From the NCBI GenBank assembly GCA_040752695.1, contig JBFMGO010000063.1, forward strand, positions 1 through 33,494: DNA of 33,494 bases, written 5' to 3'. The stretch comes from a bacterium (GTDB taxonomy: Bacteria; SZUA-182; DTGQ01). Made by a program: the position numbers and the translations under genes. The first letter of the stretch is position 1. Each line of letters opens with the position of its first letter. Positions 278 through 18,148 of the stretch are shown here, one piece after another. The notes under the pieces were generated by a model. The model saw only the letters and a list, made by a program, of their open reading frames with translations, was not told where the DNA came from and searched no databases.

Positions 278-3200
278 TCATTCAGATAACACCTCGTGGA
301 TGTTCGTTGCCACCTTGAAGTTGACCCCCAGAGCATTGAAGTGGGCCTGGCCGCAATCGATTTTGCGGTTTTCCATTTCCCGGCGTTTGTCCCGGTCATG
401 CGTGCTCTTGGTTTCCCGGACAAGGTAGAGCTTTTTATCCTGCTCTGTAACGACTGCCCAGTCAGGGTTGTAATTTCCAAGAGGGGTTGGTACGACAAAC
501 CAGCGCGGCAGCTTGCAGAAGAATTTGACGTTACCGCTGGAATCAAGCTTTTGTGCAATGTCGCGTTCCACTTCCGACTCGAAAAGGATGTAATCGTACG
601 GTGTGCGGTTGTCTTTGCTCTGCACCTCGTAAAGGCGACTCAGGTACGCTTCAATCTCTCCTTCACCTTCACCCTCAAAGAGCCTCATCTCGTAATATTG
701 CCCCTCTATCTTCTCATATTTAATGCCATCGACTACCATTTCGTGGAGGCTGCGGTTGATCAGTTTGGCTGTTTCCGTCATGAAGCTCTGAGGATTTATG
801 CAAAACTCTTTCAGTCGTCCTGATTGTTTGAGGATTTCCACGAGCGTGCTTCGGGTCAGTTCGGTTTCCCTCTGCAAATAGGCGAGAATGTCCGGCAGTC
901 GTCGGTGGCTGCTCATGCGTTCAGTCCGGCTATCGGCCACTCGTCCACCTTCAACCCCGGCTTCAGTGATATCCACTTCGGTTTTTTCGATGAGCATACG
1001 AACCGGCTGGATTTGCTCCATTTTCCTGATCTTTTCTACTGATCTGGCAATAAGATCATCTGTCTTGAATTCCACTGAATAGCGGGTTTTCTTGTTAATC
1101 TTCTCCCAGAGCGCCTGGAAGTCCTCGTTGAGTTCTATGCGTTTGTTATATTTAAAAGTACGGCGTTCGCGGGCATCGGCTACATGCTTCTTGAAAATGT
1201 ACCGCTCCATTCTATCCATAATAGCAGGCCGCAATGGCTCAAGTTCGGCAGGCAGGTCCAGGCGAAAGCCCTCCTTTTTGGGGGTGAATTTGTCGGTAAG
1301 GTCTCCATCGGCATTCAGGTATCCTTTTTCCATCAGTGTCTGCCAGATTTTCCCTGATGCTTCCTGGCCAATGGGCTGGTCTGTGGCTTCATCGATCAGT
1401 CTGGCAAAGGCAATCTTTTCGATGCGGCCAAACTTAAAGCCCCCGCCAATATCATTTTCCATATCTTCCTGGAGTCCTCTGGCGTATTCCTCAAAGGACT
1501 CGCTGGCAATGACGGTCAGTTTATTGATGGTGTCATCGGGAATACGGTCTCCATTCTGGTTAACCGGCAGGCGAAGGCCGCGCCCCAGGGTCTGTCTGCG
1601 TTCGCGCTCGGTTCCCATTTCCCTGAGCGTACAGATTTGAAAAATATTCGGATTATCCCATCCTTCCTTTAATGCGGAATGGCTGAAGATAAACCGAAGC
1701 GGCTCATCCAGGGAGAGAAGCCTCTCCTTGTCCTTCATGATAAGCTGATAGGTTTCATCATCCGCCTTGGTCGAACCTGTGGTATCTTTTAAGGCGACAA
1801 TCTGACCCTTCTTCTTATCAACGGAAAAATAGCCATTGTGCAGATCATCCACACCGAAAGGAATCAGACCTGCATAGAGCGGCTTTTGGGAAATTTCCGC
1901 AAAAGCCTCCTCGAACCACACGGCAAGCTTCCCTTTCTGCGGATTTCCCTCATCGTCATACCAGCGGTAATTGGCTACCTTGTCTATGAAAAAGAGCGAC
2001 AGGACCTTGATGCCTTTATCTTTAAACCTTTTTTCCTTCTTGAAGTGCTCCTCGATTGCCAGGCGGATCTGGGTCTTGAGTACCTCATCACCCATGCCGC
2101 CTTCTTCCTGATTCAGCTCCAGGACTTTGCCATTGGCGAATTCAACATGTTCCAGGCCGCTTTCCGCGCAGATATTGGTGACAATATAGCTGTCATACCC
2201 TGGACGGTTCGTTTGCTGACTAATATTAGTTCCCTGCTTCAAAGTGATTACTTTTTCTCTCGGTACCCCGTTTCTATCCTCATGGATCGTTGCCTTGGCA
2301 TGGGGGATTTTTGCGCCTTTCGCATACCCGATACTGTCAAGGCGGATAAAAACATCATTGAAGTTGTCATCAGACCGGATGGATGCCACCTCGATCTGCT
2401 TGACCAGCCGCATATCGTAGGCCCGGATCGGATCGAGCTTGTAGAGCAGGTTATACGGGTTGGTATGAGTGGCGGAGTAGCGCAGGCAGAAAAGGGGCTT
2501 CAGGGTCTTGATGGCACGCTTGGCCTTGGCTGTATTGTCCACGCTTTGGGGCTCATCGATGATAACGATAGGGTTTGTGGCCTGGACATACTCAATGGGT
2601 CTTCGGCCTGACATTTTGTCCTGTTCCTGGTGAATGATGTTCAGTTTTTTCCGTTGCTCTTCCGAGAGCCTTGCATAGTCTTCGATATCCCCGGCATCTT
2701 TTTGGAAAGCCTGGATATTGATGATCATGATCTGAATTTCATTACTTACGGCAAACTGGCGGATTTTGTTCAGATCGCTTGAGCTGTACACGAAATGGTC
2801 AAAGGCAACGTTATCGTAAAGATCCTTGAAGTGATCTCTCATCAGGCCGATGGATGAAAGCACACCTTCGCGGATGGCCACAGAGGGCACCACGATAACG
2901 AATTTCTTAAAGCCGTATTTGCGGTTAAGCTCAAAAATCGTTCGCAGGTATACGTAGGTCTTTCCGGTTCCCGTTTCCATCTCAATGGAGAAATTTGCAA
3001 ACCCGTAGGTGTCACCTTTCTCAATCAGAGATTGGGACTTTGGGATGATGTTTCGCTCCTGGACCGCATGAAGGTTCGTCAGAAGTTGATCAGCTTCCAA
3101 CCCTAACCGGTTGCCGATCCCAAGGCTGCTGAACGCCAATTGCCCTCTTTGTTCAGCCAGATTGATTTCAAATTCACTCTGCTTTTGTGGCAATCCCTCA

Positions 3201-3280
3201 AAGAGGCCAACGACTGCGCTTATTGCCTCCAGTTGGTACTCAAGGTTGGAATCAAACTTCAGTTTCATTTTTTCTTGCAT
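278..3280 (-). CDS. res: Type III restriction-modification system restriction (Res) subunit
   Basis: 1000 aa; Walker A EMETGTGKT, DEAD-like IIDEPQ, SALKEGWDNPN, QTLGRGLR, C-terminal PD-(D/E)xK nuclease YNPDW...VRETK; downstream of mod on the same strand. Confidence 0.95.
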   Translation of the reverse strand: MQEKMKLKFDSNLEYQLEAISAVVGLFEGLPQKQSEFEINLAEQRGQLAFSSLGIGNRLGLEADQLLTNLHAVQERNIIPKSQSLIEKGDTYGFANFSIEMETGTGKTYVYLRTIFELNRKYGFKKFVIVVPSVAIREGVLSSIGLMRDHFKDLYDNVAFDHFVYSSSDLNKIRQFAVSNEIQIMIINIQAFQKDAGDIEDYARLSEEQRKKLNIIHQEQDKMSGRRPIEYVQATNPIVIIDEPQSVDNTAKAKRAIKTLKPLFCLRYSATHTNPYNLLYKLDPIRAYDMRLVKQIEVASIRSDDNFNDVFIRLDSIGYAKGAKIPHAKATIHEDRNGVPREKVITLKQGTNISQQTNRPGYDSYIVTNICAESGLEHVEFANGKVLELNQEEGGMGDEVLKTQIRLAIEEHFKKEKRFKDKGIKVLSLFFIDKVANYRWYDDEGNPQKGKLAVWFEEAFAEISQKPLYAGLIPFGVDDLHNGYFSVDKKKGQIVALKDTTGSTKADDETYQLIMKDKERLLSLDEPLRFIFSHSALKEGWDNPNIFQICTLREMGTERERRQTLGRGLRLPVNQNGDRIPDDTINKLTVIASESFEEYARGLQEDMENDIGGGFKFGRIEKIAFARLIDEATDQPIGQEASGKIWQTLMEKGYLNADGDLTDKFTPKKEGFRLDLPAELEPLRPAIMDRMERYIFKKHVADARERRTFKYNKRIELNEDFQALWEKINKKTRYSVEFKTDDLIARSVEKIRKMEQIQPVRMLIEKTEVDITEAGVEGGRVADSRTERMSSHRRLPDILAYLQRETELTRSTLVEILKQSGRLKEFCINPQSFMTETAKLINRSLHEMVVDGIKYEKIEGQYYEMRLFEGEGEGEIEAYLSRLYEVQSKDNRTPYDYILFESEVERDIAQKLDSSGNVKFFCKLPRWFVVPTPLGNYNPDWAVVTEQDKKLYLVRETKSTHDRDKRREMENRKIDCGQAHFNALGVNFKVATNIHEVLSE

Positions 3281-3302
3281 CCTTCATTATTTAGGCAATT
3301 CT

Positions 3303-3398
3303 CTACACAGTGTGTAGAGTTTTATGCCTATTGGATATCCTATGGTATTAATATATAGCATATATGAAATCAGGTTAGATTTACTACACAGGGTGTAG
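3303..3398. repeat. Two copies of the near-palindrome CTACACAG(T/G)GTGTAG (3303-3317, 3384-3398) upstream of res
   Basis: Read directly; first copy extends to the perfect palindrome CTCTACACA-G-TGTGTAGAG (3301-3319); copies 81 bp apart. Confidence 0.7.
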
Positions 3399-3444
3399 CG
3401 TTTTTCTCTCTGCGGAAATATTTCCCATTATTACCCGTTCACGG

Positions 3445-3675
3445 TTACATGTTCACTGCCAGCGGGTAATCGAATGAATCACCGACTGCCGGTAACTGCA
3501 CATTGCCTGCTCTTTCTGCACATGACTCCAAGAGCTTTCGGGCCACGTCCCTGGCGATTTCCAATGCTTCTGTAACTGTCCGGCCTTATGCCACAAGACC
3601 TTGCACATCTTCAGAGGTTGCCAGATAGACCCCTTCCGGCAGTTTTTCTATATGAATATTGATTACCTTTTCCAT
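3445..3675 (-). pseudogene. HicB-like (DUF1902-type) antitoxin pseudogene with in-frame TAA
   Basis: Manual translation MEKVINIHIEKLPEGVYLATSEDVQGLVA*GRTVTEALEIARDVARKLLES...; HicB-like pattern; stop at 3586-3588 where Gln (CAA) is expected; absent from the ORF track. Confidence 0.8.
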
Positions 3676-3727
3676 AGTTTTCCCAAAGTTCTACAGGTTT
3701 ACTTATCTTTTGCAGTTTCATCATCTT

Positions 3728-3952
3728 CTACAGTTTCATCACCCGCTCAACCATCCATTTTAAAGGCTTTCGAGTATGACCAACAAACTCGTTATATTCA
3801 CTTAAAAATGTCAGCCATCTATCGGCATCGATCCGGCCATCAACCATGAACGGGTTATGTGCATTGGCTGATAGTCGCCTCATATCTTCTTTGAGCCGGG
3901 CAGATTGCGACTGGCGTACCAGTTCTTCCTTTTCCTTATCAGTGAGAGCCAC
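3728..3952 (-). CDS. Small hypothetical protein, probable partner of the upstream nucleotidyltransferase
   Basis: 74 aa; overlaps the NTase stop by 14 bp; charged helical N-terminus. Confidence 0.7.
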   Translation of the reverse strand: MALTDKEKEELVRQSQSARLKEDMRRLSANAHNPFMVDGRIDADRWLTFLSEYNEFVGHTRKPLKWMVERVMKL

Positions 3953-9149: not shown

Positions 9150-12100
9150 TCATGTAAGTCTCCATCGAATAGTAAAAAGTTCCGTCCCCTCAATTTCCTG
9201 TTGCAGGCGAGTTTCAACATGATCAATCAATGTATCTTTCTGCCGCTCAATTTCGCGGGCAGCCTCGTCATATTCACGCCAGGCATCATCTCTCTTTTTA
9301 TCAAGGGTACGGATCTTTTTCTGGATCTCCAGCTTATCCGGGAGGTTTGGCGCTATCCGTGCCTGTTTTTTCAGATCCGCGATTTGATCGTCATAATCCT
9401 TGAGTGAAGTCTTGAGAGATTTGCGTTTATCTTCAGCCCACCGATTCAACTTGTCCATTTCTTCTTCAAAAAAGAGAGCGTTTCGCTGCGATATATCGCC
9501 CAGTACCTTATCCTTCATTCGCCTGTAGATAGCGCTGACACCGACACCGGTATTAACACCAGTGCCGTCACCAGTACGGATCCCACCATCAAAGGACAGG
9601 CGACTGAGGCGGTTGTTGCGGCTGCCTGGCGTATCTTCCGCCAAAAAGTTTGGAAGGCTGTGACACGAGATGTTGGAACACGGGAGATTAAAGAGCCGCC
9701 GGGCCTGATCTGCCTCCAGCTCTTTCCCTGCATCGGTTATTGCTGCCATAATAAGGTAATCTTCCGGCTCCGGTGCCTTAACGGTCAGGCACTTGGCTAT
9801 CAGGACTCCGGATTGACCGATGAGCGGGTTAATGGCTGATATTTTCTTTCCTGATGCCCTGTAGGCAGAGTAATCAAACACCAGTTCAGCATCGGGCAGG
9901 ACCTTGGCCTGTGCAGACTCGATTACCCACTGGGCCAGGGGATGCTGGAGCCGGTAATGGTATCCCAACCCGTTCTGGGGCTTGAGCTTAAGCATGTAAA
10001 GGCCAACCGGGATATTCCGTTGCGGAGATTGCTTTAAGGTGAAGGTCAGGGTCTTTTCATTAAAGGAAGCCCGGCCATCCAGCATGTGGCGTGTGGTATC
10101 CCAGAGCAGGGCTTTGTAGCGGTTCAGAGAGGCTTGCGTTTCGGCCTTGTAAACATTTAGTTTCTCGGCAACTTCAGCATCGAAATTTTCCAGCAGTTTC
10201 TGGCGGGTTGTGCACATATTTTCATTGACTTGAGTGCTTAATTCTTCCTGCAAGGCATCAAAAGATGCCTGGATTTCCTCCGTTGTTCTACAGGTTTGAT
10301 AAATTTCGGCAATGCGCTTTTCAAAATCGACTCCAGACTCAATGCTGCCCAGTACCTCATCACTTGCTCCGAACACGCCACTGAAAAGGCGGAATTTTTC
10401 TGACAGCAGCTCATAAACCCGCTGGTCTGCGGCATTGTTTTTATTCAGGAAATTTACAACTACCACATCGTGCTTCTGCCCATAACGATGACAGCGGCCT
10501 ATACGCTGTTCGATGCGCTGTGGATTCCAGGGCAGGTCATAATTCACCACCAGGGAGCAAAATTGCAGGTTTATACCTTCCGCCGCTGCTTCGGTAGCGA
10601 TCATGATTTTTGCCGTCTCGCGGAAGTACTCCACCAGAGCGGCGCGGGTATCGGCAGTGCGAGAGCCGGTGGCTTTATCCGTGCCCTCAAAACGGGTTTT
10701 CCAGGCGGCATAGATTTCACGGGATTTTGCATCGCTGTTTGAGCCGTTGAACAGGACTATATCATCGTCGCTGTACCCATTTTCGGAAAGCAACCTGAGA
10801 AGATAATTCTGTGTGCGCCGTGATTCAGTGAATATTATGGTTTTTTCAGCCCCTCCCAATTCTCTGGCCATTCTGAATCCGATTTCCAATGCCTGAAGAA
10901 GTGCCCCTCCCTTGGCATTCTGAGTAATCTTCATGGCCAGATCGCAGAAGATGCGAAGCTCCTCAATCTCAGCCTGGATAACATCACGCTCTTCTTCCAG
11001 AGAAGCATATTCATCTTCACGGCCATTTATTTCAGAGCCATTTATTTCACAATCACTTATTCGGCAATCACTTATTCGACGGTCATCTATTTGGCAATTA
11101 TCCATTTGACTGCCATTTATTGGGCAATCGCCCATTTCACATTCATCCGCTTCACGGCCAGCCATTTCACGATCATCTTCATACTCGTCCGCCAACTCGC
11201 CATATGCTTCGAAATCCTCCGCCAGGGTATTATCCAGTTCCTCCTGCCCGGCAGCATGGGTACGCTTGTGGCCTTTGTTGGTATGGCCTCCGTTATGGTC
11301 TTCATTAATGTTGGTAGAGCCTCCATTGATAATGGTATCATGACCTTCCCTGGTGAGGTCCCTGCGCCGCCGCTCCAGCTTATTGGCAAGAGCATCCAGC
11401 GCTCCTGCTATGGCAAATGTCGATGAAGCCAGGAGCTTGCGCAGGACCAGTGTCATCAGGGTGCGCTGGCTTACCGGAAGCGCTTGCAGATTCGGACGGC
11501 GAAGATATTCTGAAACCATGTCATAAAGGGTTTCCTCCTCATCCGAAGGAATGAACTCCTGAGTATGGGCTTTTCGCTCGGTAAACTGGATATATTCAAG
11601 CACCTGACGCCGAAGCGTTCGCTTGCAGACCAATTTCAGGCGCTGCTTGAGATCATCAAAACTGCTGTCTGAGGTCAGCCGGGCAAACTGAGTACGAAAA
11701 CTCTTCAGGTCCCCAAATGCATGTTCATCAATAAAACTGACTAGGCCATAAAGCTCAAGCAGAGAATTCTGTAAAGGCGTAGCGGTCAGGAGAAGTTTGG
11801 GCACGTGCTTAAGCGCCTGTTTCAATGCCTGGGCGATCTTATTGCCACTTTTATAAACATTTCTCAGCCGATGCGCTTCGTCTATAACTACCAGATCCCA
11901 GTTTACGGCCTGTACATATTCAGCTTTATTCCGGGCAAAATAGTAGGAGCAAATGACAATCTCAGGAATATCAAAGGGATTGATGCCAAAGGGGTTAATA
12001 CCGAAGAGACTACTGCCACAGGGAGTACTACCAGTGGGATTGCTGCCAGCGGGACTACCGCCAGAGGAACTGCTGCCAGAGGGATTAATACCAAGGGAAT

Positions 12101-12482
12101 TGCGCTTGCCATCCTCGATTGCTTTATTGAAGGTTCGGGCTTCAAGTATCTGGGACGGCAGATAGAATTTTTCCTGAAGCTCCTGATGCCACTGTTTTCT
12201 TAAACTTGACGGGAGTATGACCAGTATTTTGCGCTTTCCTTCCGCCCATTTCTGAGATAAAACGATCCCCGCTTCAATAGTTTTTCCAAGCCCCACCTCA
12301 TCTGCCAGAATAGCCCCTTTGGAAAGAGGTGAGCGGAATGCAAACAAAGCCGCATCCACCTGATGAGGATTCAGATCGACCTGAGAATCCATAAGCGTTG
12401 CAGCAAAACGCTCCACGCTGTCTGATGGGCACCGCCTGAGTAGTTCGTGTGCGAATAACTTGGCATGATAATCAGTAATCAT
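9150..12482 (-). CDS. SNF2-related helicase/ATPase associated with the type III R-M system
   Basis: LADEVGLGKT, IDEAH, LTATP, AAAEGINLQ, DLPWNP, EQRIGRCHRYGQ; start chosen at MITDYHAK (12482); several low-complexity insertions. Confidence 0.92.
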   Translation of the reverse strand: MITDYHAKLFAHELLRRCPSDSVERFAATLMDSQVDLNPHQVDAALFAFRSPLSKGAILADEVGLGKTIEAGIVLSQKWAEGKRKILVILPSSLRKQWHQELQEKFYLPSQILEARTFNKAIEDGKRNSLGINPSGSSSSGGSPAGSNPTGSTPCGSSLFGINPFGINPFDIPEIVICSYYFARNKAEYVQAVNWDLVVIDEAHRLRNVYKSGNKIAQALKQALKHVPKLLLTATPLQNSLLELYGLVSFIDEHAFGDLKSFRTQFARLTSDSSFDDLKQRLKLVCKRTLRRQVLEYIQFTERKAHTQEFIPSDEEETLYDMVSEYLRRPNLQALPVSQRTLMTLVLRKLLASSTFAIAGALDALANKLERRRRDLTREGHDTIINGGSTNINEDHNGGHTNKGHKRTHAAGQEELDNTLAEDFEAYGELADEYEDDREMAGREADECEMGDCPINGSQMDNCQIDDRRISDCRISDCEINGSEINGREDEYASLEEERDVIQAEIEELRIFCDLAMKITQNAKGGALLQALEIGFRMARELGGAEKTIIFTESRRTQNYLLRLLSENGYSDDDIVLFNGSNSDAKSREIYAAWKTRFEGTDKATGSRTADTRAALVEYFRETAKIMIATEAAAEGINLQFCSLVVNYDLPWNPQRIEQRIGRCHRYGQKHDVVVVNFLNKNNAADQRVYELLSEKFRLFSGVFGASDEVLGSIESGVDFEKRIAEIYQTCRTTEEIQASFDALQEELSTQVNENMCTTRQKLLENFDAEVAEKLNVYKAETQASLNRYKALLWDTTRHMLDGRASFNEKTLTFTLKQSPQRNIPVGLYMLKLKPQNGLGYHYRLQHPLAQWVIESAQAKVLPDAELVFDYSAYRASGKKISAINPLIGQSGVLIAKCLTVKAPEPEDYLIMAAITDAGKELEADQARRLFNLPCSNISCHSLPNFLAEDTPGSRNNRLSRLSFDGGIRTGDGTGVNTGVGVSAIYRRMKDKVLGDISQRNALFFEEEMDKLNRWAEDKRKSLKTSLKDYDDQIADLKKQARIAPNLPDKLEIQKKIRTLDKKRDDAWREYDEAAREIERQKDTLIDHVETRLQQEIEGTELFTIRWRLT

Positions 12483-12614
12483 GAGGACTCTTTCCGTATA
12501 CTTCGTGCTTTTATTTACAAGTATCAGCAATAGAAGGCAAGCAGAAGGCAAACTAAACTCGAAGGGTTTATCTTTCCCTGATTGGCCTCGCTAACCATTA
12601 CAACCCTCAAGAAC

Positions 12615-12752: not shown

Positions 12753-12886
12753 GAATGGCACTTACATAATGAATCATGAAGCTAATTCCTTTTTAAGATT
12801 ATCCTTGAGTTCATTGCGGGATTGCTGAAGCCAGCCATAGGATTTAGGGCGTCGTTTTTTACGTCTTGGCTCGATGCGGTTAGGTC
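12753..12886 (-). mobile_element. 3' remnant of an IS4-family element (transposase C-terminus and right end)
   Basis: Minus-strand RPNRIEPRRKKRRPKSYGWLQQSRNELK...* (stop 12774-12776) resembles the IS4 RPxRxEPRxxKRRPK tail; followed by ...GTAAGTGCCATTC end; cut by IS66 at 12887. Confidence 0.7.
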
Positions 12887-13584
12887 GTGTCCTTCCGGTA
12901 AGCCTGCATGAAAAATAGGAAATAAAGCATTATCATAGGTTATCCAACAGACTAAGATAAGGGAGGATAATCTGTGAAACAAGATTGCGAACCAGTCGTT
13001 AAACCAACCATAGAGGAAATTAAAGAGCAGTTTATATTGTGGCGTAATAACCGGAAGTGCCGAGGGCAAGTTCCAGAGCAGTTATGGGAGGCAGCGATAA
13101 GGCTGGCAGAAGAATACTCCATTGGCCATATATGCAAAGTATTGGGCCTGAACAACAGGCAGCTTAAAAGGAGGATTCAAGCCCACAGTGGTAGTGGGTA
13201 TGGGGAGGAGGGAAAATCTTGCCATTTTGTGGAACTTGCCGTAAGCAGCCCAGAATCTGATACGGTAAGCGAGCCGGAATCTGATACTGAATACGTGATG
13301 GAGATGGAGGACCAGAAGGGAGGCAGACTGAAGGTACACCTCAAGGGAGGAGGAGCCAGCGTTAGTCTTGTGGAAATGGCAAAAGCATTTTGGGGGAGAG
13401 ACACATGATCCAGCTCACTCCCCAGATGAGGATACTGGTAGCGGTAGAGGCAGTGGATTTTCGCCGAGGGATCGATGGTCTGGCAAGGGTATGTCGGCAG
13501 GTGATGGGGGCTGATCCCTTTTCAGGATGGGTGTTTGTATTTCGCAATCGCAGAAGGACAGCCATAAAGGTGTTAGTGTATGAT
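12887..13584 (+). mobile_element. IS66-family element, 5' half (copy 1)
   Basis: Begins GTGTCCTTCCGGTAAG, shared with copy 2; carries tnpA and truncated tnpB; no tnpC. Confidence 0.85.
12974..13408 (+). CDS. tnpA: IS66 accessory protein TnpA-like (HTH)
   Basis: VPEQLWEAAIRLA...ICKVLGLN...FVEL; GGAGG RBS; ATGA overlap with tnpB. Confidence 0.8.
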   Translation: MKQDCEPVVKPTIEEIKEQFILWRNNRKCRGQVPEQLWEAAIRLAEEYSIGHICKVLGLNNRQLKRRIQAHSGSGYGEEGKSCHFVELAVSSPESDTVSEPESDTEYVMEMEDQKGGRLKVHLKGGGASVSLVEMAKAFWGRDT

Positions 13585-13593
13585 TTATGTTGA
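13405..13593 (+). pseudogene. tnpB: IS66 TnpB truncated by the RIT element
   Basis: VDFRRGIDGL...FVFRNRRRTAIKVLVYD, then runs into the RIT inverted repeat (LC*). Confidence 0.9.
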
Positions 13594-13676
13594 GTAGTTA
13601 TTTACGTGGAGTTGCTCACTTACCTGCTTCCTGATGCAAAATTCTCTAAATGGCAACTCCACATTAATTTTGGGCC

Positions 13677-14699
13677 TTATAGTGATTCAAGCCAATCAAG
13701 GATTGTTTTATCGCGATGCCATGGGGCTGTACTACATGCCTGTTGGTCCTGTACCGGTTTGATACTTTCGATCGCTTTGCGCTTCATTTCCAGGTCAATT
13801 GCAGCATAGCGGTTTGTAGTGTCGAGGCTCGAATGTCCCAACCACTGACTTATCGTTGATAAGTCCACACCGGATTTTATAAGAGCAACTGCGGTACTGT
13901 GGCGCATACTATGAGGATGAAGCCGTTTTGAACGGAGATTGGGAATAGAATCTTGAGCGCGCTTCAAGCAGTTATGCAAGATATGCCGGACTCCAAAGCG
14001 AGTAAGAGGTGCGCCTTGGCAGTTCTGGAATATGCGAACCTCAGAACCGAGGTCTATGTGCAGTTCTCCACAGAGGTGGCGCAAAAGTTCTGCGGTCTGA
14101 GGCCAGATAGGACAGTAGCGTTGTTTTCTTCCTTTTCCCATCAACTGAACTTGAAAAGGTTTAGTGAGTTGAAGATCACTAGCCCTCAGATTCAGAATCT
14201 CCTGAACCCGCGCGCCAGTGTTGAACATGGTTGATAACAGGGCATAATCCCGTCGTCCTTTGGATGTGGTCCGATCAATGACAGAGAGAACCTCTTTTAT
14301 CTCATCATACTCCAGATAATCAATCACCCGCGAAGTAGTTTTCTTGAATGGAATTCCCAATATCTGCTGGGCATGTTCCAAGCGGTCGGGATGCTGAGCA
14401 GCAACAAAGCGGAAAAAAGCGTGAATGGCAGAAAGCCTGTTATTTCGCGTGGAAACACTGTTATTACGTTCCTGTTCAATGTGAATAAGAAAAGAATGAA
14501 TTTCCTGAGGGCCAAGGTCATTCAGATCCAACGAAAAGGCCGGTCGATTCTTGTGGCAGGTAAGAAATCGCAACAGCAATACCATGCTATCTCGATAGCT
14601 ATGGATTGTGTGTGGACTCATGCCACACAAATGAGAGAGGTGATTTTCAAAGAAGCCTTTCAGCAGGACGGCAAGGAGGTTGGGTCGTTTAGTTTTCAT
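13677..14699 (-). CDS. Tyrosine recombinase, RitC position
   Basis: Catalytic set intact: GARVQE, GKGRK, HSMRH, LGH, TNRY. Confidence 0.92.
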   Translation of the reverse strand: MKTKRPNLLAVLLKGFFENHLSHLCGMSPHTIHSYRDSMVLLLRFLTCHKNRPAFSLDLNDLGPQEIHSFLIHIEQERNNSVSTRNNRLSAIHAFFRFVAAQHPDRLEHAQQILGIPFKKTTSRVIDYLEYDEIKEVLSVIDRTTSKGRRDYALLSTMFNTGARVQEILNLRASDLQLTKPFQVQLMGKGRKQRYCPIWPQTAELLRHLCGELHIDLGSEVRIFQNCQGAPLTRFGVRHILHNCLKRAQDSIPNLRSKRLHPHSMRHSTAVALIKSGVDLSTISQWLGHSSLDTTNRYAAIDLEMKRKAIESIKPVQDQQACSTAPWHRDKTILDWLESL

Positions 14700-14715
14700 C
14701 TTACGTCTTCCTCCC

Positions 14716-15690
14716 TTATACCTCTCGAATCAAAGAACCATAGTAAGCTGCAAAGGCTGAACTGGCGAGTGTGGCCAACGGTTCAATAAATCTCAGATAG
14801 TAGTACGTGGAGAGAATCGAAACATGACCCATGCAAGCAGCGAGAAATGGCAATTTGGCTTGGACATCTTCACCGTTACGGTACCATCGCAGGAGTGCGT
14901 TAACAGCAAAACTGAAAAGGAGGTCATGAATGCGAGGCAGACGGCCGTCTGGTTTCTTAATCCCGGCAAGATTAAACAGAATATGAAGGTTTCGTCTCAG
15001 TTGGGTACTTGAATACGTTCGACCTCCACAGTATGGATTATAGAGCAAAGAGGCATTTACAGGCAGTTGTGGTCGAACAGATTCATATGTTTTTAAAAGC
15101 TTTTCAACCTCCATAGCCACATCATCCGGCAAAGGCAAAAGGCGTGACTTGTGAAACTTCGATTCGCGAATCATGAGCGTTTGAGTTGATGGATTGTAAT
15201 CTGATGCAGTCAACCGTAGCAGTTCTCCCCGACGAAGACCGGTAGAGTATAGGAGAATCACGGCCAGGCGAGTTGTGGCTGCCCGTAAGGGGGATCTTGC
15301 AGAAACAGGGATACGGTCACTGTAGCTGAGAATCTTGGCGATATCGGGATCAGAGAATATATATGGTTGTGCCGTTGGATGGGCTTTTGGGAATTGAGAA
15401 GAATCAGGGACAAAACAGCCTGGATTAGTGCGTCTACGGTAAATGCAGAAATTTCTGACTACACGCATTCTCTCCAGCCTGACATTGCAGGAGACAGGTT
15501 CCAATGTCTGGCACCACAGTCTGAACGTTTCTGCAATGAGATCCGGATTTTCCTGCTTGCACAAAAACTGATCCAGCTTAAGCAGGATTCTTGACTGGTG
15601 TTCGAAGCAACGCCCTAAGGCTTGTTTGATATTGATATAGTTTACAATCTCATTCGCGACTGTGGATCGAAATGAATCTGTCTTGATCAT
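14716..15690 (-). CDS. Tyrosine recombinase, RitB position (HxxR altered to HDLL)
   Basis: GLRRGE, SKFHKSR, IHDLLFSF, MGH, TYYY; AAGGAGG RBS and ATGA overlap with ritA. Confidence 0.88.
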   Translation of the reverse strand: MIKTDSFRSTVANEIVNYINIKQALGRCFEHQSRILLKLDQFLCKQENPDLIAETFRLWCQTLEPVSCNVRLERMRVVRNFCIYRRRTNPGCFVPDSSQFPKAHPTAQPYIFSDPDIAKILSYSDRIPVSARSPLRAATTRLAVILLYSTGLRRGELLRLTASDYNPSTQTLMIRESKFHKSRLLPLPDDVAMEVEKLLKTYESVRPQLPVNASLLYNPYCGGRTYSSTQLRRNLHILFNLAGIKKPDGRLPRIHDLLFSFAVNALLRWYRNGEDVQAKLPFLAACMGHVSILSTYYYLRFIEPLATLASSAFAAYYGSLIREV

Positions 15691-16330
15691 GACTGCACCT
15701 CCTTTTGCCATTCTGGGGAACGCGGCATAGGAAGGGCAACCTCCCGCAAGTCTTCAGTGGCGAGTCGAATGTAGACCGCTGTACTTTCGGGCGAGCGGTG
15801 ACCCAACAGATCTCCAATCGCCTTTAAAGACAAACCACGACGCAACAGATGGAGAGCATAGGAATGCCGTAAACAATGAGTCCCTTTGAAGGGAATATCA
15901 AGTCCGCTCTTTCTGGACCAGGACTGAAAGGCTTCAATCACTGCTGTTGGCTTCAGAATACCATCAGGGGCTTTGAGGCGAAGGAAAATCTCCCGGTACT
16001 TGCCATACCGAGGGACGGTCTTGAGGTAATCATAGATTGCTGAACTAACCTCGTTTGTCAGAGGCAACTCTAAGGGATTGCCAGTTTTAGCCTGACAGAT
16101 CCGAATACAGCCGCTTCGCCATTTTATATCGTCGAGTTTGAGAGCTACAACATCGCATGCACGTAATCCATAGGTGGCCATCAAGGAGAACATTGTGTAG
16201 TCTCGCTTCCCAATAGCCGTACTCCTGTCAATAGAACGAAGAAATGCTTGCACTGTTTCCCATGGCAAGGCTCGCGGAAGTTGCTCCTGCCGGTAAATAC
16301 GTGGAGTATCGATCTGGCTGTCTAGTCCAG
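15687..16330 (-). pseudogene. Tyrosine recombinase RitA, 5'-truncated
   Basis: Frame extends upstream as GLDSQIDTPRIYRQEQLPRALPW to ~16330, where it abuts IS982; catalytic half retained (GLRACD, HCLRH, LGH, Y). Confidence 0.85.
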
Positions 16331-17139
16331 ATTCACCGTTTCGATGAGAGATCTTTTCCTGAGGAATATTTTATCTATAAGGGGAATGAGTTTATTTTTC
16401 ATGTTTTTCTTAATTTTCGTAATGAGTTCAATCCCTCTTTGAATAAGGGTTTCAAAAAGATCCTGGGATATGTATCCCTTATCGCCAAAGAGTTTTCCAA
16501 AAAGATCTTTGGTCAATTTATCTATGAGGTCTCTGTTTCGATCATCCACATTGCCAGGGGTGAGATTAAAGGAGAGCAACTCTCCCTTGTCATTGATAAC
16601 AATATGGAGTTTAAAGCCATAGAACCATCCTACAGAGGTTTTTCCTCTTTGGGCACTGCCCGCAAACACACGATGAGAGTGAATCCTTCTGGGATGGCAC
16701 ACTCTTAAAGGGGTTGAATCAATAAATGAGATTCCCGTTACTTGGCCAAGCCTCTGAGTTTGAAGATAAAACAGCAGGGGGATTATTACTCCTTGTGATA
16801 GCTCTACAAACCTGTTATAACTTACCAGGTTGGGGAAGGCTGAATGCAGAGAGCCGCTTATCAACTTTACATAATAATCCTTGAAAGTCCTATACTTAGA
16901 GAAATGGAAGTATATGATTATGGTCATGATTTCACTCATAGTTAAGCGGGTGATTTGACTCTTTTTACCGTTCCTGTTTCAAGTAATCTCTGTTCCCAGC
17001 AACTTTCGAATACCTTACAGTAATTATCAACATCATAGAAAATTTCTTCTAACATGGCTTTTGGTCCCCCCTTCTTGGTTTTTCTCTGATGCTATTAATT
17101 CTACCAAGATCGGGGGACTTCGCTATGTCGAACTCACGT
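16331..17139 (-). mobile_element. IS982-family element, frameshifted and 3'-truncated
   Basis: Left end ACGTGAGTTCG at 17139; ATG 17055 MLEEIFYDVDNYC..., 1-nt frameshift near 16950, then MSEIMTI...IDSTP...GWFYGFKLH...GDKGY...RSLIETVN, ending at the junction with ritA. Confidence 0.88.
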
Positions 17140-17217
17140 TAATTAATGTGAAGTGAAAAATAATTTATTGCCTTAAAAGACGGGGGCGGCTTGTAGCAAC
17201 TCCACATAAATAACTAC

Positions 17218-17406
17218 TCAACATAAATCATACATTAACACCTTGATGGCTGTCCTCCTGCGATTGCGAAATACAAATACATACCCTGAAAAGGGATCAG
17301 TTTTTATCACTTGCCGGCATACCCGCGACAAACCATCGATTCCCTGGCGAAAATCCACTGCCTCTACCGCCACCAGTATCCGCATCTGGGGAGTGATCTG
17401 GATCAT
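17218..17406 (-). pseudogene. tnpB: IS66 TnpB truncated by the RIT element (copy 2)
   Basis: VDFRQGIDGL...AIKVLMYD then LC*; same breakpoint as copy 1. Confidence 0.9.
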
Positions 17407-17975
17407 TGGTCTCTTCCCCAAAATGCTTTTGCCATTTCCACAAGACTAACGCTGGCTCCTCCTCCCTTTATATGGACCTTCAGCTTGCCTCCCTTCTGGT
17501 CCTCCACCTCCACCACATATTCGACATCAGATTTCGGCTTGCCTATCATGTCAGATTCTGCTTTATTTACTGCACCTGATCCACGCCTGCTTACCGAATC
17601 AGATTCTGGCTCGCTTACGGTAAGCTCTACAAAGTGGCAAGATTTTCCCTCCTCCTTCGGATACCCATTACCATTATGCTCTTGAACCATCCTCTTGAGC
17701 TGCCTATTATTCAGGCCTAATACTCTGCATATCTGCCCAATTGAGTAATCTTCTGCCAGCCTTACCGCTGCCTCCCATAACTGCTCAGGAACTGGCCCGC
17801 GGCACCTCTTGGTGTTACGCCATAATATAAACTGCTCTTGGACTTCCTCTATGGTTGGTTTAGCGATTGGCAGGCATTCTTCTTTCATAGCTTATCCTCC
17901 TTTATCTTAGTCTGTTGGATAACCTATGATATTGCTTTTTTACCTATTTTTCATGCAGCCCTACCGGAAGGACAC
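17227..17975 (-). mobile_element. IS66-family element, 5' half (copy 2, inverted)
   Basis: Begins GTGTCCTTCCGGTAGG on the minus strand at 17975; diverged paralogue of copy 1. Confidence 0.85.
17403..17888 (-). CDS. tnpA: IS66 accessory protein TnpA-like (copy 2)
   Basis: 161 aa, clear paralogue of 12974..13408 with extra 8-aa repeats. Confidence 0.8.
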   Translation of the reverse strand: MKEECLPIAKPTIEEVQEQFILWRNTKRCRGPVPEQLWEAAVRLAEDYSIGQICRVLGLNNRQLKRMVQEHNGNGYPKEEGKSCHFVELTVSEPESDSVSRRGSGAVNKAESDMIGKPKSDVEYVVEVEDQKGGKLKVHIKGGGASVSLVEMAKAFWGRDQ

Positions 17976-18148
17976 GGATTCTTCTCTCTCACATTAAATT
18001 TCCCGAATCCTCTTATTTCAACCGATTCTCGTTGAGCGAGTGAATTTTTAATCAGATTAATGGTCTGTTCGTATATCTGTTTTGACTGTTGGAGAGTTAA
18101 ATCGGGGAATTGGTTCCAGATTGATTTGATAATTTCTTCTTTGGTCAT
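17976..18148 (-). pseudogene. HU/IHF-family DNA-binding protein truncated by IS66
   Basis: MTKEEII...ESVEIRGFGKFNVREKNP, then IS66 end; the GRNP arm is missing. Confidence 0.88.

Follow-up and report, generated by a model that had tools for sequence, protein, structure and literature searches.

How do the front halves of two different insertion sequences come to face one another across a single recombinase element? The question is raised by positions 12753–18148 of contig JBFMGO010000063.1 (assembly GCA_040752695.1), a bacterial sequence of 33,494 nt that was analysed at its full length and is called the window below; it is the entire contig C63 of a bin (G000) of 239 contigs and 6.05 Mb. Here a RIT element of 3.6 kb (13586–17225) lies between two inward-facing 5′ halves of IS66 insertion sequences. 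RIT elements are described as recombinase trios with inverted repeats of ~28–34 bp and a palindrome at one end (PMC3414803, PMC5737581), and copies have been found in a Tn6049-like transposase gene and in radC (PMC3414803). As far as the available text of the sources goes, no convincing binding sites have been reported (PMC3414803), mobility has never been reproduced (PMC3414803, PMC5737581, PMC10214605), and target specificity and movement are listed as 'not tested' (PMC10214605). Our data point to a clade of RIT elements that uses one exact site in the IS66 gene tnpB, and to the joint in the window as a rearranged, recurrent product of that association.

Evidence for the arrangement came firstly from the repeat structure of the locus. 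A repeat search returned inverted arms at 12886–13616 and 17195–17976, composed of three collinear segments (380, 326 and 78 nt) with 83–86% complementarity; gapped blastn of arm against arm gave 80.4% identity across 751 nt. Each arm comprises a tnpA-like reading frame and tnpB up to codon 65, and matches TnpB_IS66 (PF05717) at 59.7 and 58.4 bits (cut-off 26.6), the match being confined to positions 2–53 of the 101-position profile. The outward end of each arm is an IS66-type terminal repeat (GTGTCCTTCCGG...; terminal-repeat scan), and the inward end of each is ...GTATGAT, the Tyr-Asp codons of tnpB, followed directly by the same 31-nt RIT terminal repeat, the two copies of which are identical at 30 of 31 positions. 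We considered whether the arms of ~700 nt might be long repeats belonging to the RIT itself and rejected the idea, since they are parts of IS66 with terminal repeats of their own. An initial annotation of the locus had described a RIT between two inverted IS66 5′ halves cut at the identical nucleotide, and the two TATGAT ends with their adjoining 31-nt repeats bear this out.

What the locus lacks is equally instructive. As the same annotation had noted, neither a tnpB 3′ half nor tnpC is present anywhere in the window, which profile searches with PF05717 and PF03050 corroborated; across the 239-contig bin, PF05717 recovered the two stubs only and PF03050 a partial gene on contig C210 only. The outer flanks proved to be unrelated, again as claimed: the 8-mers that abut the arms are unlike (GTTAGGTC versus GGATTCTT), so that a target duplication of 8 bp is absent. 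On the right the flank consists of a truncated HU gene (PF00216, 47.7 bits, profile positions 1–57 of 90), an intact orthologue of which lies on contig C39 of the same-genus genome G002; no orphan copy of the HU 3′ part was found in the bin. The 36-codon remnant on the left has no NCBIfam match and no further copy in the bin, and the IS4 label given to it earlier is unconfirmed.

A critical issue is the origin of the two arms. Compared by the method of Nei and Gojobori, arm A (left) and arm B (right) show ratios of nonsynonymous to synonymous divergence (dN/dS) of 0.36 in tnpA (144 codons) and 0.18 in the tnpB stub (60 codons), values which show that they diverged under purifying selection while coding, as separate IS66 lineages. 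Arm A is moreover nearer to the intact tnpB of G002 (dS 0.28; 98% amino acid identity over 60 codons) than to arm B (dS 0.43). That the arms derive from two diverged IS66 copies, as had been proposed, therefore holds. The same figures bear upon the possibility that RIT insertion, by a fold-back or replicative event, produced an inverted copy of a single IS66 5′ half, and that the two then drifted apart. Such copying has a small-scale counterpart in the inverted copy of the 6-nt target hexamer found in ordinary insertions (see below), and the arms of one public locus (L019) are 99.3% identical over 143 nt; in the window, however, the arms differ by ~18%, bear the mark of divergence while both coded, are less alike than arm A and the IS66 of another genome, and each end exactly at an IS66 terminal repeat beyond which lie unrelated broken genes. 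We regard inverted duplication as hardly credible here. Separate lineages, broken flank genes without relation to one another and the lack of a target duplication together argue that two IS66 insertions at different loci have been joined at the RIT site. The HU side of the locus matches C39 of G002 and the helicase side matches C55, and their location on separate contigs hints, weakly, that the flanks are of distant origin; synteny in genomes G001, G002, G004 and G005 was too weak to tell inversion from deletion.

Whether the coincidence of both cuts at one nucleotide reflects a property of the RIT was asked of its relatives. RitB homologues numbered 2594 at E ≤ 1e-10, the best with 60–72% identity and many of them on contigs of ~3.5 kb. 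An alignment of 35 homologues led to 128 relatives in the genome_contigs collection, from which 80 loci were kept and searched for tnpB, by tblastn with the G002 TnpB and then with two small hidden Markov models built from the matches. Pieces of tnpB occur in 14 of the 80 loci, and in 13 of them (L012–L021, L030, L044 and L087) a RIT end abuts codon 65, at a Tyr-Asp or Trp-Asp pair; the fourteenth, L053, has a 22-residue tnpB fragment only. The 13 loci come from metagenome-assembled genomes (MAGs) labelled Uhrbacteria, Desulfobulbales, Desulfoarculaceae, beta- and deltaproteobacteria, Bryobacterales, Terriglobales/Terriglobia, Acidobacteria and Proteobacteria, at least six phyla in all. No tnpB was found in the remaining 66 loci, whose RitB identities are mostly 42–52%. 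At 15 listed junctions from the 13 public loci the tnpB codon pair gives way to one and the same RIT end sequence, the consensus being ...TAYGAY and then T(T/A/C)ATGTT..., the start of a repeat with two direct subrepeats of ~11 nt; in genome G044 a second, degraded RIT copy also adjoins a tnpB 5′ half.

Uninterrupted genes define the site from the other side. Where homology to the window stops, the intact tnpB of G002 reads ...GTATATGAC and continues GGGCAAGGG..., the site itself being ...TATGAC followed by GGGCAAGG; and in run X7 a sequence resembling arm B carries an intact tnpB that runs on across 17227/17226. Searches of wider scope added little. The exact 24-nt RIT-end pattern had no match in genome_contigs or metagenome_contigs, the ends being too variable; among 20 genomes of the same phylum the clade was absent from the other 19, the sole RitB match (34%, in G019) being distant; and a DNA search of 41 genomes matched the tnpB part only. 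A plasmid collection held 39 records with RitB at 40–46% identity, and the two inspected (H1 and H17) do not lie beside an annotated IS66 tnpB, which is uninformative on this clade. Judged by its junctions, then, this RIT clade is site-specific for the Tyr-Asp codon pair (TAYGAY) of IS66 tnpB. The initial annotation had surmised that the RIT targets this site in either orientation and had advised a survey of other RIT junctions; the 13 loci at the Tyr/Trp-Asp pair, together with the two orientations of the RIT body described next, agree with the surmise.

In 11 of the 13 loci the insertion is an ordinary one, with a tnpB 5′ half on one side and a 3′ half on the other. The RIT body may lie either way, tnpB being opposite to ritB in seven loci and parallel to it in four. 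Nine of these insertions could be parsed: after the far RIT end come a hexamer (X′), 20 bp, a second hexamer (X), and then tnpB codon 66, with the 20-bp part consisting of two inverted copies of the RIT subrepeat. X′ is the reverse complement of the 5′-junction hexamer in eight of the nine and covaries with the target (TACGAC, TATGAC, TACGAT, TATGAT, TGGGAC), while the two direct hexamers are identical in seven; those of L018 differ between the junctions. The resulting 32-bp unit (hexamer, 20 bp, hexamer) was found in all nine, as a perfect palindrome in five and in degenerate form in L021; L030 and L087 carry a unit of the same kind. Its position is invariably on the side of the 3′ half. We tried to read the unit as a lox-like site of 13-6-13 and abandoned this: the covariation is better fitted by a pair of arms with a 6-bp crossover spacer on either side. 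The layout of the far end (X′, 20 bp, X) implies that an integrated RIT has three hexamer sites, and the middle one (RIT end, X′, arm) looks like the mirror of the site expected on an excised circle.

Several features of these loci are recorded for completeness. In the window the inner subrepeat recurs in inverted form, as a third copy, at 13653–13667, 37 nt inside the ritC end, and relatives are seemingly alike (...AACTC). In L014 (8591–9409) and L030 (8615–9325) tnpC and the tnpB 3′ half are on opposite strands, suggesting a further inversion inside these IS66 copies; in L021 (3608–4300) and L087 (3630–4325) the tnpB halves are ~6 kb apart, and an extra tyrosine-recombinase-like frame separates the 3′ half from the RIT.

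The remaining two of the 13 loci, L012 and L019, have tnpB 5′ halves on both sides and no palindrome, as in the window. Their arms are 93.6% identical over 374 nt (L012) and 99.3% over 143 nt (L019), both comparisons being bounded by contig ends. With the window included (n=14) the tally is three 5′/5′ forms, eleven 5′/3′ forms and no 3′/3′ form. The palindrome that marks one RIT end was found neither in the window nor elsewhere in the bin, and its absence from the window is what a 5′/5′ product predicts. Beside the 5′/5′ forms PF05717 detected one intact tnpB in G046 and four in G049, plus the two stubs, and no orphan tnpB 3′ half or reciprocal product in either genome. RitB of this clade is single-copy in nine of the ten genomes with such loci, the tenth (G044) having the second, degraded copy. 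The proposal that two loci were joined at the RIT is consistent with the two lineages of arms, the differing flanks and the recurrence of the 5′/5′ form; the reciprocal product that it had led us to expect was sought and found neither in the bin nor in G046 or G049. On balance we consider the 5′/5′ joint to be probably real, and to have joined two IS66 loci, by whichever route.

As to the route, we tentatively favour one in which the joint was made by the RIT recombinases acting through an internal site, the reciprocal product being lost. The starting point would be an ordinary insertion: 5′ half, X, RIT, X′, 20 bp (two back-to-back candidate recombinase-binding arms), X, 3′ half. From within one IS66 copy, the RIT would use its internal site to recombine, by crossover in the hexamer, with the corresponding tnpB site of another IS66 copy, inverted and diverged. 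The visible product would be 5′ half A, X, RIT, X′, inverted 5′ half B – a structure without palindrome, without tnpB 3′ half and without target duplication, flanked by unrelated sequence – and in the reciprocal the two 3′ halves would meet tail to tail with the palindrome between them; this structure, itself a long near-perfect palindrome, would be lost. Subsequently IS982 would have inserted ~50 nt inside the ritA end, after which a deletion would have removed the IS982 3′ end and the first ~205 ritA codons, and the catalytic Arg of RitB would have been lost.

Homologous recombination could lead to the same joint: of two RIT copies, one in IS66 A and one in IS66 B, the 3.5-kb bodies would lie in opposite orientations, and a RecA-type crossover within them would yield a RIT between 5′ halves and a RIT with a palindrome on either side between 3′ halves, or else a deletion in which the latter is lost. 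Both body orientations do occur at the site, 3.5 kb of identity is ample substrate, and the product is the one observed. The route requires two RIT copies in a cell, however, and nine of ten genomes have one, the second copy of the tenth being degraded; a RIT between 3′ halves was seen in none of the 14 loci as against three between 5′ halves, a count of limited weight given that MAGs may collapse or drop repeats; and this reciprocal, which should be stable, is absent from all three genomes with the 5′/5′ form. We judge homologous recombination rather unlikely. Catalysis by the RIT is preferred because the RIT is mostly single-copy and IS66 multi-copy, and because the stable 3′/3′ RIT reciprocal has never been seen while a solo-palindrome reciprocal should be unstable; we infer this preference from small numbers.

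Several considerations weigh against the recombinase-made joint. Homologous recombination between two RIT copies yields an identical 5′/5′ product. The reciprocal is absent from the bin, G046 and G049, and a strict pattern describing a palindrome with a tnpB 3′ half on each side had no match in metagenome_contigs; such a structure may neither survive nor assemble, and instability of a solo palindrome is in line with the empty search. As the bin holds no IS66 bodies, absence from the genome is weak evidence. The element is now dead, so that any activity must predate its decay. Finally, what links the two RIT parts is 818 nt of IS982, probably a collapsed repeat; in it lies a 127-nt node (16331–16457) common to contigs C48 and C229, and a second node, in the left arm (12986–13112), is shared with C210. 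No public run contains half of the window's words – shares were 0.05–0.09 – and the four runs compared offered only Logan contigs of relatives at 90–97%, informative on junction positions and not on linkage.

These nodes raise the question of whether the contig was mis-threaded in a short-read bin, the RIT ends coming from different molecules or copies, each of which might be a normal 5′/3′ insertion or a fragment rearranged on its own. Contig ends in the bin overlap by 127 nt, and two such nodes fall inside C63: one equals an end of C210, and the other equals both the end of C48 (the flgK-flgL flank) and the start of C229 (the IS982 3′ end and purA). An IS982 body is required by C229 as well as by C188, and the one in C63 must therefore stand for at least two copies; the shared IS982 node is exactly k (127 nt) long, which is odd; pieces shorter than ~1.7 kb, such as tnpB 3′ halves, would be missing from the bin; and the window is in no public run. 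Yet each tnpB/RIT junction lies in bin-unique sequence more than 127 nt from any node, and arms that are ~82% alike with RIT repeats of 31 nt make a hairpin walk impossible at k=127. The RIT parts complement one another without overlap and meet IS982 in a single consistent orientation, the ritA N-terminal part is nowhere else in the bin, and the alternative pairing would leave an orphan 127-nt piece of IS982 between flgL and ritA. In G001 and G002, flgL and purA are on different contigs, so that adjacency of C48 and C229 finds no support there. L012, besides, shows the same 5′/5′ form with diverged arms. An assembly artefact is therefore unlikely in our estimation; were the left node alone mis-threaded, the 5′/5′ core would stand and the statement about the left flank would fall.

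The central element is assigned to the RITs on gene order and on relatives with the same trio, there being no Rit family profile in Pfam or NCBIfam. Three PF00589 frames lie on the minus strand (Table 1), ritA overlapping ritB and ritB separated from ritC by 16 nt; the three recombinase frames score 105.6, 45.2 and 87.1 bits, of which 105.6 belongs to ritC and 45.2 to ritB. RitC has Phage_integrase and SAM-like N-domains and is 44–77% identical to the product of the third trio gene in the 13 public loci, the Rit proteins score under the Xer cut-offs, and the 31-nt terminal inverted repeats fit the RIT range of about 28–34 bp. A second, distant trio-like set of tyrosine recombinases, 29–36% identical to the window's RitA, RitB and RitC, is present in the same genome on C142 (~2040–3775).

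Three signs of decay had escaped the initial annotation: an IS982 fragment, a RitA stub, and an Arg-to-Leu change in RitB. When the RitA frames of four relatives (three full-length, of 419–460 aa, and the L013 frame of 312 aa) were used as tblastn queries, only the C-terminal ~200–213 residues aligned (16331/16328–15690), and the N-terminal part (~205 residues) was found nowhere in the bin. At position 258 of the RitB alignment the window has Leu where all 34 homologues have Arg. The IS982 fragment (NCBIfam NF033520, 213.7 bits, cut-off 130) is 90.7% identical to a full-length copy on C34, with its missing 3′ end on C229 and C188, and takes the place of ~675 nt of RIT. Homology to a related RIT contig in run X7 ends at 16330, and a related RIT contig in run X6 covers 17142–17224 and then passes into sequence other than IS982; these two limits indicate that IS982 entered ~50 nt inside the ritA-end repeat, and the loss of both the IS982 3′ end and ~675 nt of RIT that a later deletion took the two together. 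With the RitA N-terminus missing, the catalytic Arg of RitB lost and IS982 inside it, the RIT of the window is, by its sequence, dead and immobile.

Table 1. Features of the locus, in window coordinates.
Feature	Position	Strand	Description
Left outer flank	12777–12886	−	final 36 codons of a broken gene, truncated at the IS66 arm
IS66 copy A, 5′ half	12887–13585	+	terminal repeat from 12887; TATGAT at 13580–13585
Copy A genes	tnpA 12974–13408; tnpB TTG 13390, ATG 13405	+	tnpB codons 1–65
RIT terminal inverted repeat, ritC end	13586–13616	+	two direct ~11-nt subrepeats of type TWATGTKRAGT
ritC	13677–14699	−	tyrosine recombinase, 340 aa, frame intact
ritB	14716–15711	−	tyrosine recombinase, frame intact; Leu for catalytic Arg of H-x-x-R box
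ritA remnant	15687–16330	−	C-terminal ~213 codons (catalytic domain) only
IS982-family element	16331–17144	−	5′ end and body; 3′ end cut at 16331; transposase frame broken
Native RIT sequence (~50 nt) and ritA-end terminal inverted repeat (17195–17225)	17145–17225	−	
IS66 copy B, 5′ half	17226–17975	−	TATGAT at 17232–17227; terminal repeat ends at 17975
Copy B genes	tnpB 17421–17227; tnpA 17888–17403	−	tnpB codons 1–65
Right outer flank	17976–18148	−	first ~58 codons of HU/IHF-type gene, cut by copy B

Other traces of IS66 in this genome touch upon the fate of such structures. The left end of a third IS66 variant lies on nine contig ends and its right end on four. Pairing by 8-bp duplications (five of five paired ends) gives three left/right pairs and two left/left pairs, the latter being the end of C42 with the start of C211 (AAGTGATC) and the end of C120 with the start of C92 (CAATGTTT); the left/left ends have 122–126 nt, including the start of tnpA, on both sides, and the interior is outside the bin. 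Once the element and a single duplication copy are taken out, an open frame again runs through each of the five joints (163, at least 817, 391, 540 and at least 817 codons), those of the left/left pairs being 163 and at least 817 codons. Duplications and restored frames together show that units bounded by two left ends have transposed in this genome.

It could thus be asked whether the structure in the window, from terminal repeat to terminal repeat, is itself a composite transposon moved as a whole by IS66 transposase in trans. Two of the five paired sites, left-end-type at both ends with a perfect 8-bp duplication, provide a precedent; the 8-mers that flank the window's structure differ, however, and its flanks come from different genes rather than from one interrupted gene, which makes this very improbable. 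A bolder idea, which we put forward as a doubtful one, is that an integrated RIT attacks a second IS66 without excising, and that the resulting left-end-bounded unit is then moved by IS66 transposase in trans. If so, two IS66 copies would be destroyed at once and their front halves welded into a symmetric unit, the RIT would gain a second way to spread, and the two left/left insertion sites would be places to which such units have already jumped.

Further IS66 remnants were noted in passing. Contig C210 (3589 nt), whose first 127 nt equal window 12986–13112, carries a derivative of copy A in which tnpA codon 46 is fused to mid-tnpC; its tnpC is interrupted by ~2.1 kb with a long reverse frame, after which comes an IS66 right end. 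A solitary 120-nt remnant of the copy-A left end, with one mismatch to the window, stands at 77305–77423 of C14 and gives way to unrelated sequence. L005 (contig C73 of G002, 1–200) has an intact tnpA-tnpB and then ~200 nt without a tnpC start before the contig end. In the window itself, a 1133-codon SNF2-type helicase frame (9150–12551, minus strand) contains, at 10900–12200, direct repeats spaced at 15 nt that encode low-complexity inserts.

The element resembles known RITs in its three adjacent same-strand tyrosine-recombinase genes, its length of ~3.5 kb and its terminal inverted repeats of ~30 bp; like them, for they often occur in genes of other mobile elements, it sits in such a gene, and its intact relatives have a palindrome overlapping one end. 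It differs in belonging to a clade with one exact target, the Tyr-Asp codons of IS66 tnpB, whereas the available accounts of RITs state no target rule; and the copy in the window, unlike known RITs, is without palindrome and lies between two 5′ halves. Known transposons with several tyrosine recombinases use a 6-bp coupling or crossover sequence that can pass from donor to target, which the unlike hexamers of L018 fit, and have, unlike RITs, neither terminal inverted repeats nor an extra palindromic site pair. In Cre/loxP and Xer/dif, inverted binding arms surround a crossover spacer of 6–8 bp, and the orientation of the sites decides between inversion and deletion; the RIT junction, by comparison, has three hexamer copies, six candidate arms and three different recombinases. 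IS66 elements have the organization tnpA-tnpB-tnpC and make target duplications of 8 bp. The arms in the window share with them a terminal repeat, tnpA and the start of tnpB, and their sister copies have 8-bp duplications in five of five cases; they depart from IS66 in lacking the second half of tnpB and tnpC, and in repeats that begin GTGT. A literature search, which did not cover supplements, found no paper linking RIT to IS66 tnpB; one paper (PMC2864759) contains both terms. While RIT elements themselves are known, the exact tnpB target, the recurrent 5′/5′ rearranged form and a testable mechanistic model are new.

An exact and conserved target, a 6-bp hexamer that covaries with it and a recurrent 5′/5′ by-product together make the question of RIT movement a testable one, and the by-product points to an internal site that may still be active after integration. 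For the annotation of genomes, the finding explains pairs of 'half IS66' elements around integrase trios. More broadly, it describes one mobile element that inactivates and rearranges another, and is possibly carried along by it.

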